From Plasmodiophora brassicae (lineage: Eukaryota), in the NCBI GenBank assembly GCA_036867785.1, contig CP145423.1, positions 806,001 through 870,000 on the forward strand: a stretch of DNA of 64,000 bases, read 5' to 3'. Positions 12,402 through 18,400 of the stretch are shown one piece after another. Position numbers and translations under genes: made by a program. Below the pieces are notes generated by a model. The model worked only from the letters and a program-made list of their open reading frames with translations. It was not told the DNA's origin and made no database searches. Position 1 is the stretch's first letter. Every line of letters begins with the position of its first letter.

Positions 12402-15400
12402 ATGCGGTCGGCATGGGTGCTGCTGGCGGCGGCGACGTTGCTGACGGCCGGCATGGACGCGTTCATCGCCGGGGTCACGATCCAGCAGATCCTGGACCTG
12501 ATGAACAGCGCGCGTGCCAACGTGGTGCCGACGGCGTCCCAGATGGTCAAGTTGCAATGGGACGCGTCGCTGGCGTCGGCGGCGGCCAGCTACGCTGCCA
12601 CACAGTGCTCGGGCGCCTTTAGCGGCGCCGGCCCCACCTGCACCAACTGTGTCACCTGGATCGCCGACGCCGAGCTGCCGTCGTACGGGTCGCAGGGCAT
12701 CCTCGACATCATTGCCGGCAACTTCATCGCTGGGGTACGTGATCGGCCCGGTCGTGTCGCCCCAGCCGTGGTGCCCGTAATGACGATGGGGGGCGCCCCT
12801 GCGGCGTAGAAATCGATGTGGCCGTGCACACAGTCGGGCTCGACGTTGACATGTTCCTGCTCTGGCGGCGGCTGCTACGACGACTGGAACAACCTGGTCA
12901 ACGATGCGGCGACGGCCGTCGGGTGCGGCGAGCAGACGTCGACCGCATGCGGCAAACCGAACAACATCTACGTGTGCGTGTACGTGCCCCGCTCCCCCTG
13001 CCTCGTCTGATGATTTGCTGTCGGCGTGCTGACTGTTCTGCTGGCAGGTTCAACGGGTGGACGTCGGACGCGCATCCGTACACGGCGTCGGTGACGAATT
13101 CATCGTGCACGAAGGGAACCTGCCCGTCGGCCTACCCGGTCTGCGCCGGAAACCTGTGCACGGCCAGGACGACCACGAAACGCCCCACGACGAGGCGCCG
13201 CACGACAAGGCGCCCGACAACCAAACGCCCGACAACAAGACGCCCGACGACACGCCGACCAACAACAAGGCGCCCGACGACGCGGCGGCCCAGTACAAGA
13301 CGCCCAACGACCCGTCGCCCTACGACCCGTCGCCCTACGACCCGTCGCCCTACAACCCGTCGCCCTACGACACGACGGCCTACGACACGTCGCCCCACGA
13401 CACGACGGCCTACGACACGTCGCCCTACGACCCGTCGCCCTACGACACGTCGCCCTACGACACGACGGCCTACGACACGTCGCCCCACGACCCGTCGCCC
13501 TACGACACGACGCCCTACGACACGACGGCCTACGACCCGTCGCCCTACGACCCGTCGCCCTACGACACGACGGCCTACGACCCGTCGCCCTACGACCCGT
13601 CGCCCTACGACACGACGGCCTACGACACGTCGCCCCACGACCCATCGCCCTACGACACGTCGCCCTACGACACGACGGCCTACGACACGACGGCCTACGA
13701 CCCGTCGCCCTACGACCCGTCTCCCGTCGACCCGCCGCCCTACGACACGTCACCCGACGACACGACGCCCAACAACAAGGCGACCCACGACACGACACCC
13801 TACGACGCGACGTCCAACGACGCGACGCCCCACGACTCGACGTCCAGCGACGCGACGCCCCACTACAAGACGCCCTACGACGGGACGTCCCACAACACGT
13901 CGCCCTACGACACATCGCCCAACGACCCGTCGCCCTACAACCCGTCGCCCTACAACCCGTCGCCCTACGACCCGTCGCCCTTCGACCCGTCGCCCTACGA
14001 CACGTCGCCCCACGACACGACGGCCTACGACCCGTCGCCCTACGACCCGTCGCCCTTCGACCCGTCGCCCTACGACCCGACGCCCGACGACACGACGCCC
14101 AACAACAAGGCGACCCACGACGCGGCACCCTACGACGCGACGTCCAACGACGCGACGCCCCACGACTCGACGTCCAACGACACGACGCCCCACTACAAGA
14201 CGCCCTACGACGGGACGTCCCACAACACGTCGCCCTACGACACATCGCCCAACGACCCGTCGCCCTACAACCCGTCGCCCTACAACCCGTCGCCCTACGA
14301 CCCGTCGCCCGACGACACGACGCCCAACAACAAGGCGACCCACGACGCGGCACCCTACGACGCGACGTCCAACGACGCGACGCCCCACGACTCGACGTCC
14401 AACGACACGACGCCCCACTACAAGACGCCCTACGACGGGACGTCCCACAACACGTCGCCCTACGACACATCGCCCAACGACCCGTCGCCCTACAACCCGT
14501 CGCCCTACAACCCGTCGCCCTACGACCCGTCGCCCTTCGACCCGTCGCCCTACGACACGACGCCCAACAACAAGGCGACCCACGACGCGGCACCCTACGA
14601 CGCGACGTCCAACGACGCGACGTCCAACGACGCGACGTCCAACGACGCGACGTCCAACGACGCGACGTCCAACGACGCGACGTCCAACGACGCGACGTCC
14701 AACGACGCGACGTCCAACGACGCGACGTCCAACGACGCGACGTCCAACGACGCGACGTCCAACGACGCGACGTTCCACCACAAGACGCCCGACGGGACGC
14801 CGTACAACACGTCGGCCCACTACAAGGCGCCCCACGACACGACGCCCTACCACCAGACGGCCCACTACAAGACGTCCAACGACTAACCGTCCAACCACAC
14901 GACGCCCCACAACTGGCCGACCAACTACAGGGCGCCGAACCACAAGGCGCCCTACGTCACGACGCCCCACCACTCGACATCTTACTACCAGACGTCCCAC
15001 CACCAGAAGCCGTACAACACGGCGCCCGAGCACAAGACGCCCCACGACACGACACCCAACCACTAAGCGCCCCACGACAAGGCGCCCAACCACCAGGAGA
15101 CCAACGACAAAGCGTCCGACGTCTCGACACCTAACTACAAGACGTCCATCCACTAAGCGCCGCACGACAGGGCGCTCAACCACAAGACGGCCCACAACAC
15201 GACGGCGCACAACAAGACGCCCAACCAGTAACCGTCCAACGACACGACGTCCAACGACACGCCGGCCAACCACAAGGCGCCCGACGACTCGAAGGCCAAC
15301 CACAAGACGCCGCACAACGCGACGCCCTACGTCGCAGCACCCTACTACAAGACGCCCAACTACTAATCGTCCAACGGCACGGCGGCTAACCACCAGACGC

Positions 15401-18400
15401 CCAACAACACGCCGGCCGACCACAAGACGGCTCACCACAAGACGTCCAACTACCAGGCACCCTACGACACGCCGCCTAACCACGAGACGCCCTGCTACAA
15501 GACCCACGACCACTAAGCGCCGCACGACACGTCGCCCCACATCACGCCGCCCCACGACTCGTTCGCCTACTACAAGACGTCCGACGACTAAGCGGCGCTC
15601 AACGACATCGCGCCCCGCCACAAGACGCCGATCGACGGTACGCTCAACGACAAGGCGGCCATCGACCAGGCACCCAACGACGCTGCGGCCGGCTGGTACG
15701 AGACGACCGTCGACAAGAAGCCAATCGACAAGGCACCCGACAACCAGACGACCTACCACACGGCGACAGACCACAAGACACCCGTCCCGACGTCCGACCA
15801 CACTCCACCCAACCTCCAGGCAGCCTACGATAAGGCGCTCAGCCAGCAGGCGCCAGACCACTAATCGTCCAACCAGCAGGCGTCGAACCAGCAGGCGTCC
15901 ATTGACAGCACGGCCAACCACAAGGCTACCGGCCACGAGACGCCCGACCACTCGACGTCATACGTCGAGGCGCCCAACCTTGAGACGATCCGCCACAGCC
16001 CGCCCAACAAGGCACTCTACAACAGGACGACCAGGCACGAGAAGACCAACCAGTGAGCGTGCAACAACAAAGTACACGACCACAGGACGACGTCGGCGAA
16101 CAACTAGTCGAAGGACGTCAACCAGCCGCAAGGCAATGGTGCATTCGACGTCAACAAGGCAGGCCACAGCGAAACATCGATCTACGAGGTCATTCACGAG
16201 ACGTCCGTCGACGAGGCAACTCACGATGCTCTCCAAACGACACCGGACGTCGAGTAAGGCACCACGACGACCAACATCGAGGCAGCAGGGTACGAGCCAG
16301 CCTGGAACCGGACGGGGGACGACAAGACGTCCTTCTACAGGCAAACGTACACGACGGCACTCGACCAGACACTCGACACGGAGGTTCCCGACCACGAAGA
16401 ATCCGACTTCAACGGGGCGGCCGTCGAACACCCCAAGTACACGTTCGAGGAATCCCACATCCCGACGTCCTTCGACGCAGCGACCTGCAGCGAGGCACCC
16501 ATCGCAGGTGACGTCCCGTACGCCGCCTGAGGTCCTTCATCCGACGACATCCAGAGCACAAAGCGCGACACAAGCCACGTCGTTCTGGGTTCGCCTTCAA
16601 GCACCGACCGTGCTGGATCCGTCCACGTCGCTGGCCCTGTACGCTACGATTGCGCCCGGAACCGACCGTCGACTGCTGACCACGTCGTGGACGTGCGATA
16701 CGCTGGACCTGTCGCCCGCATCCGGGAACGTCCTGACGTCGCCGACGGACACGTTGTCGCTCGTCCTGGCACCGAACGCCCTGCAGTACGCCACGTCGTA
16801 CCGGTTCACGATCGCAGCGCGCCTGGCAACGACGACAACCAGCGCCTCGGCCACGATCACGATTCCGCCGCGACCCACCGGCGGCGTCGTCAACGTCACC
16901 TGGGCGGGAGGCCGGCCCGTCGAATTGTCGACCGTCTTCAACATCAGCACCCGGGGATGGCAGGCCGCCGGCGCCCCTCTGGAATTCGTCTTCTCGTACG
17001 TGGTCGTCGGGCGCGCATCTGGGACCAGCGAGTACAGCATCGGGTCGGCCGCACCGACGTCCACGTCGGCCCTCACGACGTTGCCCTCGGGCGACCCCGT
17101 CCGCGTTCTCGTTCGCGCCATTGCACCCGGGTCCCGCGTCCGATCCGCTCCCGTCTGGACTGACATCGTTGTGCAGCGCGCCTCGACACAGCAAGTGCTC
17201 GACAGTGTCCTCTCGTCAGCAGCGACCGTTGTCGGTCCACCACAGGTCGTCATGAACCAGTTGCAATCGGCCACGCTGGCCCTGAACGCCGTCTCCAACT
17301 ATTCCACGTCGGCGAACACGTCGTCGGCCGTTGTGGCCGCCCGATCTGCCCTCATCTCCACGTTGGTGACGGCCTGCTCCAATGCCAGCAACGTCAACGC
17401 TGACAGTGCCGCTGTTCTGCTGGGGACGCTGACCGCCCAGCCTGAGCAGCTGTCGGTCAACGCCACCCAGCAGGTCATGGCGTTCGCCGGCACGCTCGTC
17501 CAGCAATCCCTGTCGAGCACGACATCGCTGTCGTTGCAGGGGTTGACCGCGGTGGCCCAGTCGGTGTCATCGGCCATGACCGCCGCGCGTCTGACCAACG
17601 CGACGTCGTCGGCAACGTCGGCGGTCCAGCACGCCGTCGTCGACCTGATCGCCTCGGCGCAGGTCGCCACGACGCAGCCGTGCCGGCCTGCATTGACGAT
17701 ATCGACGGCGAACTTCCAATCGCACGCCTGGTCCCTGGACGGCCTGGCCCACGCCAACGGCACCTGTGCGGCGACAGGAGCCCAAGAGTCGTCGGTCGTC
17801 CTGCCGCCCGATTTCTGGTCGGCCATGAACGTCAGCGGGGACGTTGGCGTGCAGATGACCGTCTGGGTGGACAACCCACACACGACCCGTCTGGTGAACG
17901 GGGCATCGCCCGTCACCACCGTCCGCACGTTCAGGATCGCATCGTCCCCTGGGTCTACAACGTCATCGGCGGCAGCACCGCCCGAGCCCATCGTCGTCCG
18001 CAGCCTGTCGTCGAGTTCGCCCATCAATGTGACGTTGGCGCCCACGACTAAGGGGGGCGGCATACGGGCGGATTCGTCATGTGACGCGACGAGCCGCCCG
18101 GTCTGTGTCACGTTCGACGGCGCCCTTCAGAACTGGACCACGGCCGGGTGCACGACGATTACGATGCCGTCGACCAATGTGCTCACGTCTTCGGTGACGT
18201 GTTCGTGCACGCACCTGACCGACTTTGCCCTGGTTATGTACCTGGAGGAGGCGCAACGTGGGCCTGGGTGTGGCGGCACCGGCCGATTCGTCGACCAGAA
18301 GGCGCTGGCGGACGTGATCAACAACGCGAACGCCATCCACCGCGTGTTCCTGGGCCTGTACATCTGCACGGCGCTCATCGCCCTGGTGTTGGTCTCGCGC

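Follow-up and report, generated by a model that had tools for sequence, protein, structure and literature searches.

Paralogous receptor genes of Plasmodiophora brassicae encode a selected RRPTT repeat, a candidate cationic mucin stalk

The window analyzed here is a 64-kb stretch of Plasmodiophora brassicae DNA (64,000 nucleotides of contig CP145423.1), from which we built gene models with GT-AG introns for three paralogs. All three share the same order of parts, namely a signal peptide, a CAP domain, a stalk, a REJ region, a GAIN/GPS region and a seven-helix membrane domain (7TM). The stalk was delimited as the segment from the Cys-rich end of the head (LCTA) to the start of REJ (FWVRLQ). The features, with positions counted in the window, are as follows.

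5972..9838, minus strand: copy 1, same architecture, with a 40-aa stalk at ~8969-9088
12402..12734, plus strand: copy 2 exon 1, signal-peptide-like N-terminus (by eye) and first part of CAP (Pfam CAP E=2.3e-5), with a GTACGT donor after it
12810..12979, plus strand: copy 2 exon 2, remaining CAP domain; the CAP exons hold no His and 10 Cys
13048..13165, plus strand: start of copy 2 exon 3, Cys-rich linker in the stalk frame; the splice phase yields YVCVFNG
13166..14914, plus strand: copy 2 stalk core, ~115 RRPTT units of 15 bp, including higher-order duplications of 225-240 bp
14915..16582, plus strand: copy 2 degenerate stalk, R/T/S/P-rich, unique in sequence and stop-free, with a DNA contig and RNA-type contigs
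16583..17170, plus strand: copy 2 REJ-type beta-sandwich modules, end approximate (Pfam REJ E=8.6e-12; strands in model residues 17-195)
17171..18250, plus strand: copy 2 GAIN domain, boundaries approximate (Pfam GPS E=8.1e-7; Foldseek)
18212..18220, plus strand: copy 2 GPS cleavage motif HL|T, with Stachel-like TDFALVM from 18218 (sequence motif)
18251..19138, plus strand: copy 2 seven-helix membrane domain, predicted GPCR fold (pLDDT 84.8; VIA Z 17-19 to GPCRs; 7tm_2 not matched)
19139..19570, plus strand: copy 2 cytoplasmic tail to the stop codon
24559..29444, plus strand: copy 3, same architecture, with a 341-aa stalk (25325-26393) if a predicted intron is spliced
26337..26382, plus strand: copy 3 predicted 46-nt phase-1 GT-AG intron at the stalk/REJ junction, splicing unobserved; an alternative donor at 26355 would give 28 nt

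The stalks of copies 1, 2 and 3 are 40, 1139 and 341 aa long, a 28-fold range, in agreement with the original prediction of about 40, 1140 and 340 aa and a roughly 30-fold spread. The 341 aa of copy 3 follow from removal of the predicted 46-nt intron; unspliced, the RRPTT frame meets a stop at 26372-26374. The copy 2 stalk ends at 16582, not at 16560 as first placed. The flanking domains had been described as nearly identical between copies, which fits the head (84-95% identity) and REJ with the helical part (93-95%) but not GAIN-B (62-93%) or the TM domain with the tail (~73%). The copy 1 model (1245 aa) is identical to the public protein XXQ38563.1 (P0001), for which phmmer gave no match in the PDB at E<=0.01. 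No annotated proteins were found for copies 2 and 3, and no longer annotated receptor form appeared among 8000 candidates scored, which is weak evidence. The head matches PF00188 over profile positions 1-117 of 117 (E=9.8e-9). His is absent from the CAP exons of all three copies, so that the canonical metal-binding His pair is missing; this pair of the CAP tetrad is absent from many true CAP proteins.

The copy 2 stalk is an extracellular tandem repeat N-terminal of the TM domain, more than half of it Ser, Thr and Pro (T 34%, S 5%, P 16%), and it carries 395 R+K against 2 D+E and no Cys. Within its core (13178-14914), Arg makes up 37.5%, close to the two-fifths claimed beforehand, Thr 38.9% and Pro 19.5%. 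The 115 units comprise 46 distinct DNA units but only 13 peptides. When changes between units were counted on a minimum spanning tree, 59 were synonymous and 18 non-synonymous (pN/pS 0.15), and this tally bears out the earlier view that the variation is mostly synonymous and the peptide under selection. The same ratio was 4.2 and 3.0 in the other two forward frames. Over its 3,417 nt the stalk frame holds no stop, compared with 7, 12, 14, 3 and 85 in the other five frames, and about 8-11 stops would be expected by chance in the 3' half of the stalk alone. Replacements in copy 2 tended to keep the residue class, as Thr went to Ser in 15 of 20 cases (20% expected) and Arg to K/H in 12 of 19 (14% expected). 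At all seven loci tested, the RRPTT frame gave pN/pS of 0.18-0.32 (other frames 0.98-2.8). With eight loci pooled, replaced Thr became Ser at 55 of 81 sites (19% expected) and replaced basic sites became K/H at 53 of 122 (11% expected), the p-values of such class-keeping replacements being too small because haplotypes share ancestry; Cys was absent from all eight stalks. The copy 2 stalk is coding and under protein-level selection, specifically for basic and hydroxyl residues.

Several other readings of the repeat were set aside. Alternative coding frames (SPYDP/TPYDT-like and DALRH-like) were ruled out by pN/pS of 3-4 and by stops, and depletion of acidic residues gave no evidence for selection on charge (2 observed vs 3.6 expected, P=0.27). 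Pfam matches to Extensin_1 and to HC2 (Chlamydia histone-like) were compositional, the repeat being RRPTT within a 7TM receptor. A stalk query of the ESM Atlas returned nothing meaningful (best 0.81), and a BLASTN comparison of copies 2 and 3 over their degenerate stalk halves gave no clear homology, with matches limited to 18-42 nt.

Across the genome, a [R/K][R/K]PTT tract occurs at 17 loci, in RRPTT and RKPTT versions that coexist, under CAP, NHL or LRR heads or none. Tract lengths run from 40 to 1941 aa and the frame is never lost; copy 2 has 168 units and the C2 locus 318. At nine loci the tract adjoins the N-terminus, directly after a putative signal peptide and with no head beyond it. 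These include GPI-anchor-like and small secreted proteins, one type with an SOD-like domain, and some are mostly tract. The tract is an organism-wide mucin module reused under several heads and without one. For the C20 and C2 receptors, public models start downstream of the stalk (P0002, P0151, P0152), and the one for the C4 locus, SPQ95616.1 (P0155), treats a shorter in-frame R/T-rich stretch like an intron and leaves it out. Literature searches on P. brassicae adhesion GPCRs, RRPTT, Plasmodiophora REJ and mucin repeats turned up no description of the repeat or the family, and published P. brassicae GPCR lists may contain these receptors. The xxESGxx repeat of PbALE is unrelated, and RRPTT occurs in the literature as a Drosophila Sgs1 antibody peptide.

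In the case of the GAIN region, which immediately precedes the membrane domain, Pfam GPS scored above cut-off in all three copies. The eight best Foldseek matches (E 1e-6 to 7e-5) were GAIN-containing structures of adhesion GPCRs (BAI3, CD97, CELSR1, latrophilin, BAI2 and GPR110), obtained with a query model of pLDDT 66 and with high rmsd over a multidomain model. The GAIN fold and the HL|T motif recur in nine of nine aligned paralogs (HL|TDFA), and TDFALVM of copy 2 fits, as a sequence motif, the tethered-agonist consensus TxFAVLM (PMC12716839). After the GPS, seven helices and a tail follow, not 11 TM segments. The best VIA match of the 7TM model was to GPCRs (Z 19.1, rmsd 3.8, 242 residues aligned); adhesion GPCRs were not among the 50 VIA rows, which excludes nothing. 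Foldseek with the 7TM alone gave nothing at E<=0.001, and the 50 top ranks shown were GPCRs. None of the 17 members matched 7tm_2 (PF00002) at E<=1, and five of the 17, including the C18 paralog, matched THH1_TOM1-3 (best 1e-13). Caution is needed on the separation from 7tm_2, as a GPS-including profile reaches the TM region of ADGRD1 (E 7e-7) and ADGRG6 (E 7e-6). Going by these models, the receptor is predicted to work like an adhesion GPCR and is not a member of that family, having a GPCR fold without the 7tm_2 signature. No PLAT or PKD_channel domain was matched in the receptors by profile search. The genome also gave 85 exon-level matches to G-alpha genes (best E 7e-112).

Among known systems, ADGRG4/GPR112 has a comparable layout, with an N-terminal ligand-type head, a very long S/T-rich stalk, GAIN, GPS, a tethered-agonist-like sequence and a GPCR-fold 7TM, and its head-mucin-GAIN-7TM arrangement was proposed as a shear sensor (PMC10687090). 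The P. brassicae receptors differ from adhesion GPCRs in their CAP, NHL or LRR heads, their strongly basic stalk, their REJ modules before GAIN, and a 7TM that lacks the 7tm_2 signature and has weak THH1/TOM1/TOM3 matches in relatives. Their host is also a rhizarian, whereas the GAIN-7TM linkage of adhesion GPCRs has been placed in holozoans (PMC12716839, PMC10445921). Polycystin-1-like proteins (PKD1, PKDREJ) likewise have REJ followed by GAIN/GPS, but with 11 TM segments and PLAT and channel domains in place of seven helices of predicted GPCR fold. One of them, C. elegans LOV-1, has a mucin-like region.

The original prediction regarded a cationic mucin stalk as unusual, which was overstated because basic T/P mucin repeats have precedent. 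Drosophila Sgs1 and Sgs3 contain short basic Thr/Pro repeats (KPTTT, TTRR, KKPXTT) that are O-glycosylated and change rapidly in number (PMC6352337), although these are secreted glues of a few hundred residues (Sgs3) and not receptor stalks of 400-1900 residues. Per five residues, melanogaster Sgs3 has one basic residue and P. brassicae two; homology is not implied. Tick 'proteoglycan 4-like' proteins (P0179-P0181) carry a nearly identical pentapeptide, QRPTT, in a secreted-type protein, and RRPTT or RKPTT serves as a short linker in secreted-type astacin-ShK, TSP1/Ly-6, M8 peptidase and multicopper oxidase proteins. Unlike the stalks described here, the tick and linker proteins are not receptors, and none of 120 metagenome loci exceeded 22 units, whereas copy 2 has 168 and C2 has 318. 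Surface mucins of T. cruzi are also Thr-rich protist repeats with GPI-anchored members and GT60 in the genome, and its GT60 adds GlcNAc to mucin Thr (PMC9472816); those mucins are capped with sialic acid, whereas glycosylation in P. brassicae is predicted. GT60 (PF11397) was found at about 10 places in the P. brassicae genome and PMT at none by profile search. The paired Thr are predicted to be O-glycosylated, with the GT60-type genes as candidate writer; the Thr-to-Ser bias and the GT60 family would be indirect signs of dense glycosylation.

Considering these features, we propose that copy 2 encodes an adhesion-GPCR-like clubroot receptor that would grip polyanions through a cationic mucin stalk and pass force to its GAIN/7TM part, a scheme to which we give even chances; we infer each step beyond the selected peptide. 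The receptor would consist of the CAP head, the 1139-aa cationic mucin stalk, REJ, an autoproteolytic GAIN and the GPCR-fold 7TM. O-glycans on the paired Thr would make the chain a stiff, extended bottlebrush that carries roughly one positive charge per nm, and at a pitch of 2.5 Å per residue (PMC10687090) the stalks of copies 1, 3 and 2 would extend ~10, 85 and 285 nm. Candidate ligands of the bottlebrush surface are pectin or mucilage of the host, or its anionic membranes; the stalk would also keep the head at a distance from the cell. Once the GPS has been cleaved, tension on the head or the stalk would uncover TDFALVM and so switch on the 7TM and G proteins. Each paralog would owe its own stalk length, and hence its reach and avidity, to slippage of the repeat and to unequal crossover. 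A Spongospora study reports a drop in root attachment after trypsin and PNGase F and not after cellulase, with pectinase not among the three enzymes (PMC9944879); these results point to host glycoproteins as the attachment partner and count against the proposal. Also against it, the near-stalkless copy 1 has an intact frame, so the stalk is dispensable for such a receptor, and the number of repeats in fly glue may, in its authors' view, vary almost neutrally between certain limits (PMC6352337).

In the receptors, the stalk could plausibly act as a spacer, and the ruler originally suggested stands in part. That the stalk is nothing else, a stiff O-glycosylated rod setting the reach of the CAP head, seems rather unlikely to us. 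On that account, the basic residues would serve solubility, extension by self-repulsion or glycosyltransferase recognition, and the length differences between paralogs might be largely neutral. It draws on the head-stalk-GAIN layout shared with ADGRG4, on tracts that keep frame from 40 to 1941 aa, and on the short RRPTT/RKPTT linkers between domains of unrelated secreted enzymes. However, with no head past the tract at nine loci, some of them mostly tract, a ruler cannot be the only role, and among 150 related REJ/GPS proteins the 30 mucin-like stretches included no basic one, so that relatives build spacers without basic charge. The module goes beyond a ruler and is probably a cationic, O-glycosylated bottlebrush that serves adhesion.

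We consider it quite unlikely that the module serves as a cationic mucin layer protecting the naked zoospore or plasmodium. Such a coat would repel cationic host defence peptides, or it would condense with polyanions, either inside secretory vesicles or in the cyst/spore wall, and the receptors would bear the same module to reach through it. It would suit the GPI-anchor-like and secreted members with the tract at their tip, one type of them SOD-like, and also the Pro that follows 136 of the 171 [K/R]R pairs. As predicted, this Pro prevents a cut behind the pair, yet R|RP stays open to trypsin-type enzymes, and 35 pairs have no Pro. Basic mucins of the fly restructure within secretory granules (10.1101/2021.08.16.456250). 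A coat would, however, have no need of coupling to GAIN and 7TM.

Read support covers the 3' part of the copy 2 stalk. An independent DNA contig spans 15600-16610 with no differences at single-copy depth (62 vs 66-69). RNA-type contigs, in low and patchy depth (bin depths 0-4.8), also lie on the stalk, whereas bins 21775-22424 were empty. The three RNA-type runs are RNA by guess, not by record, and the RNA nature of X18, which has the best stalk contigs, is not established because no canonical splice joint was seen. Empty RNA-run bins, including those of the copy 3 CAP exons, say nothing on silence. It is highly improbable that the stalk is an assembly expansion, is spliced out or lies in an untranslated copy 2: the core (13166-15599) falls outside the read support, 662 of the 3417 stalk bases belong to the second copy of an exact repeat >=60 nt, no annotated protein surfaced for copies 2 and 3, and a similar segment is skipped in one public model, but 918 aa remain after removing all exact duplicates, neither an assembler nor an intron would yield 46 distinct units under codon-level purifying selection, the whole frame is free of stops, and the 3' stalk has its single-copy DNA match and RNA-type contigs.

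Taken together, the cationic stalks may give the parasite a hold on host surfaces of negative charge. The abstract of PMC9944879 describes the way in which plasmodiophorid zoospores attach to roots as unknown, and the relevant part of a review reports that a GPCR inhibitor lessened clubroot symptoms and names no such receptor (PMC9180986). The family provides named candidates with a testable physical mechanism. It also exposes an annotation blind spot, as public models of several receptors omit the stalk, and it places a GAIN-7TM receptor with complex ectodomains beyond the holozoans, a range from which two surveys reported none of the 7tm_2 type (PMC12716839, PMC10445921). More tentatively, and somewhat against the odds, P. 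brassicae may possess an undescribed cationic glycocalyx of at least 17 [R/K][R/K]PTT genes, partly absent from public models, that would act as both electrostatic glue and touch sensor. Its adhesion-GPCR look-alikes would have arisen separately in Rhizaria, by the joining of REJ-GAIN to a TOM1-like 7TM, and their reach would depend on the length of the stalk. If true, plasmodiophorid attachment and recognition would become directly testable, and perhaps blockable by soluble polyanions or GT60 inhibitors.

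The paralog models bore out the stalk lengths of the original prediction, about 40, 1140 and 340 aa for copies 1, 2 and 3.

Splice-aware paralog models and neighbouring features in the window (G000:C15:806001-870000; genome G000 of P. brassicae, 25.3 Mb, 20 contigs)
9838-5972, minus: copy 1, 1245 aa; stalk 40 aa, R+K/D+E 9/0
12402-19570, plus: copy 2, 2341 aa; stalk 1139 aa, R+K/D+E 395/2
24559-29444, plus: copy 3, 1564 aa; stalk 341 aa if an inferred 46-nt stalk/REJ intron (26337-26382; predicted) is spliced, R+K/D+E 107/1
20617-21663, plus: ORF between copies 2 and 3, 348 aa, single frame, no Pfam match; RNA-type contig depth 11-13
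29832-31902, minus: patatin-like lipase, ordinary neighbour
32828-33715, minus: RNase 2-5A (Ire1-like) domain, ordinary neighbour
48928-49863, minus: SMC/ABC-type ATPase, ordinary neighbour
56583-58685, plus: P-type cation ATPase, ordinary neighbour
59194-60198, minus: hexapeptide-repeat protein, ordinary neighbour

Copy 1 encodes exactly the public P. brassicae protein XXQ38563.1 (P0001). The predicted near-identity of the flanks held for the heads (84-95%) and for the REJ and helical region (93-95%), but not for GAIN-B (62-93%) or the TM and tail (~73%). Because the closest paralog of copy 3 differs by domain, being copy 2 for head and REJ (95%) and copy 1 for GAIN-B (93% vs 65%, compared over 17860-18260), its mosaic similarity suggests gene conversion or recombination between paralogs. 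In copy 3 (26337-26382) and in locus C20b (L013 ~3770-3835, minus), the frame shifts where stalk meets REJ, and a short phase-1 intron would fit there; if retained, it would yield a secreted head-plus-stalk product.

Pfam matches in the receptor were CAP, REJ and GPS, and the CAP exons encode no His. The predicted REJ-to-7TM model (pLDDT 66) had adhesion-GPCR, GAIN-containing structures as its best eight matches, while the C-terminal fragment was predicted as seven helices (pLDDT 84.8) with GPCR matches at Z 17-19. The 7tm_2 signature was absent in all 17 aligned members, and 5 of them matched THH1/TOM1/TOM3. HL↓TDFA is present in all nine aligned paralogs, and the copy 2 motif TDFALVM is close in sequence to the tethered-agonist consensus described for adhesion GPCRs, TxFAVLM (PMC12716839). 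Relatives with REJ-GPS occur widely, numbering 2690 cluster representatives at E<=0.001, some with the same TM domain. Elsewhere, ~8 clustered CAP genes (L023 and L024, C12 ~608-623 kb) are kin to the window heads; in the three examined, a short R/K/T-rich stalk follows CAP, and in at least two of them one TM helix comes next, GAIN being absent. CAP heads have likely been shuffled between single-pass proteins and 7TM receptors.

The tract is used throughout the genome, where a pattern of two R[R/K/H/Q/N/S]P[T/S][T/S]-type units gave 450 matches vs 18 for the control. GPS matches numbered 14, and among nine aligned REJ-GAIN-7TM paralogs six have a long basic stalk and three a short basic linker.

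Further tract-bearing loci by contig
C20a: REJ-GAIN-7TM paralog, NHL head; stalk 599 aa
C20b: REJ-GAIN-7TM paralog, LRR head; stalk 416 aa
C17a: REJ-GAIN-7TM paralog; degenerate stalk, 270 aa
C2 ~1.323-1.332 Mb (L016:684-9515), minus: REJ-GAIN-7TM receptor, LRR head; RKPTT stalk 1941 aa, net charge +691
C1 ~930-933 kb (L020:3048-6329), minus: single-pass protein; alternating RRPTT/RKPTT tract, 649 aa
C17: protein outside the receptor family; tract 425 aa
C7: LRR membrane protein; tract 190 aa
C7 ~119-122 kb (L150:4305-6693): three tandem small secreted-type proteins; RKPTT tracts 219, 69 and 54 aa
C12 ~332-343 kb (L151:4279-9687, L152:1434-5289): four tandem GPI-anchor-like proteins; N-terminal RKPTT/KKVTT tracts 500, 191, 191 and 124 aa

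In total, at least 17 loci carry the tract, copy 1 counted, and in 9 of 17 it follows the signal peptide with no head distal, as called by eye and in some cases across inferred introns. The C1 protein runs from signal peptide through tract, a ~145-aa domain (SEA-like by eye, no Pfam match) and TM to tail, and the C7 trio share a C-terminal domain of ~45 aa after the tract. The C12 members with 500-, 191- and 191-aa tracts add a SOD-like domain (no Pfam match; Atlas lead Sod_Cu, 0.84) and a PAPT linker, the fourth being tract and linker alone. Public models of C20a and the C2 receptor (P0002, P0151, P0152) begin downstream of the stalk.

The stalk frame of copy 2 runs on from the CAP exons with no stop in 3,417 nt, while the other five frames hold 3 to 85 stops each and shuffles lead one to expect ~8-11 in the 3' half alone. 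The 115 core units comprise 46 DNA variants and only 13 peptides. Unit variation was indeed mostly synonymous in the RRPTT frame (59 changes synonymous, 18 not; pN/pS 0.15), with pN/pS of 4.2 and 3.0 in the remaining two forward frames; the peptide frame gave 0.18-0.32 at all seven loci tested across the genome. In copy 2, replaced Thr became Ser in 15 of 20 cases (20% expected) and replaced Arg became Lys or His in 12 of 19 (14% expected), and over eight pooled loci Thr went to Ser in 55 of 81 and Lys or His stood at 53 of 122 replaced basic sites; p-values for such replacements are too small because repeat units have common ancestry, but their direction is consistent. The scarcity of Asp and Glu in the copy 2 stalk gave no independent sign of selection (P=0.27). 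Taken together, the copy 2 stalk is real and selected as a peptide, and the repeat is established as selected, basic, rich in hydroxyl residues and extracellular, whether it carries a head or forms the tip itself.

At 2.5 Å per residue, the stalks span ~10, ~285 and ~85 nm in copies 1, 2 and 3, with ~1 charge per nm in copy 2. We give an even chance to the stalk being a polyanion-binding cationic bottlebrush, through which, in the receptors, force reaches the GAIN/Stachel switch. Its Thr pairs may be O-glycosylated; GT60 is described as initiating mucin glycans in T. cruzi (PMC9472816), and G000 has PF11397 (GT60-type) genes at ~10 places and none found for PMT. The GT60-type family and the plentiful G-alpha genes look expanded for a 25-Mb genome. 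Such a stalk would grip polyanions, and a pull on it would be transmitted to the switch. Candidate ligands are pectin or mucilage when zoospores attach or, given that PI(4,5)P2 is described as accumulating at the plasmodium interface (PMC13738674), anionic host membranes. A stalk of this span could also be a spacer pure and simple, which we consider rather unlikely, and a shield or packaging role seems improbable. Of 171 dibasic pairs, 136 are followed by Pro; it would block a cut behind the pair, as had been predicted for dibasic cleavage, but not a cut between both Arg.

That the array is an artefact, or silent, is highly improbable. While second copies of exact repeats of at least 60 nt make up 662 of 3417 copy 2 stalk bases, the stalk is still 918 aa with all of them taken out. 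Reads from four runs were checked over 15600-25338, downstream of the repeat core; here a single 1744-nt contig of DNA run X1 spans 15600-16610 with zero differences, at depth 62 vs 66-69 in single-copy neighbours. Among the guessed-RNA runs, X18 gave exact contigs at 15600-15738 and 16077-16328 with no canonical splice joint seen, and X15 and X14, both of which contain spliced reads (X15 from neighbouring genes), had depths of 2.6 at 15925-16249 and 2.2 at 16250-16574; all three had zero depth across 21775-22424. Transcription of the 3' stalk of copy 2 has weak to moderate support. On the other side, RNA-type cover of this stalk is patchy, an X14 contig placed on copy 1 by its match end runs on into intron 1 without splicing, and public model SPQ95616.1 (C4 locus) leaves out a shorter in-frame R/T-rich segment. 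Two database searches, each scoring 8000 candidates, turned up no annotated protein for copy 2 or 3. Separately, very high depth and numerous loose ends at ~23164-23198 in all four runs probably mark a conserved or repeated element.

The receptors are of a known kind, the mucin-stalked GAIN receptor, and so is the basic mucin repeat. ADGRG4, proposed as a shear sensor, has a similar layout of head, mucin stalk, GAIN and 7TM (PMC10687090), but the P. brassicae 7TM fails the 7tm_2 test of adhesion GPCRs; likewise, the REJ-GAIN unit resembles that of polycystin-1, whose 11-TM/PLAT test the receptors fail. The GAIN-7TM linkage of adhesion GPCRs has been placed in holozoans (PMC12716839, PMC10445921), and in the receptors here, which are rhizarian, it looks to have been assembled in parallel with a different 7TM. 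Mucin stalks had been expected to be neutral or acidic, and of 30 mucin-like stretches in the top 150 receptor relatives none is basic and seven are acidic, a count that carries less weight since even the entries for P. brassicae are missing their stalks. The expectation fails for Sgs3, whose repeats are given as KPTTT, TTRR or KKPXTT and change fast in number (PMC6352337), and for tick proteins with QRPTT, near RRPTT; a basic mucin repeat is not unique to P. brassicae. Metagenome RRPTT-type loci reach at most 22 units each among at least 120 matches listed, and in a few of these the tract is clearly a linker in secreted proteins. One unrelated, eukaryote-like metagenome fragment (L110:1-657; no Pfam match) has RRPTT repeats after an apparent CAP C-terminus (YTCNYGP). 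We found no description of the repeat or family in the literature searched; an existing P. brassicae GPCR paper may list the genes. Gene callers may conceal basic tracts in other organisms too, and what stands out in P. brassicae is the scale of the tracts, their genome-wide use and their omission from several gene models.
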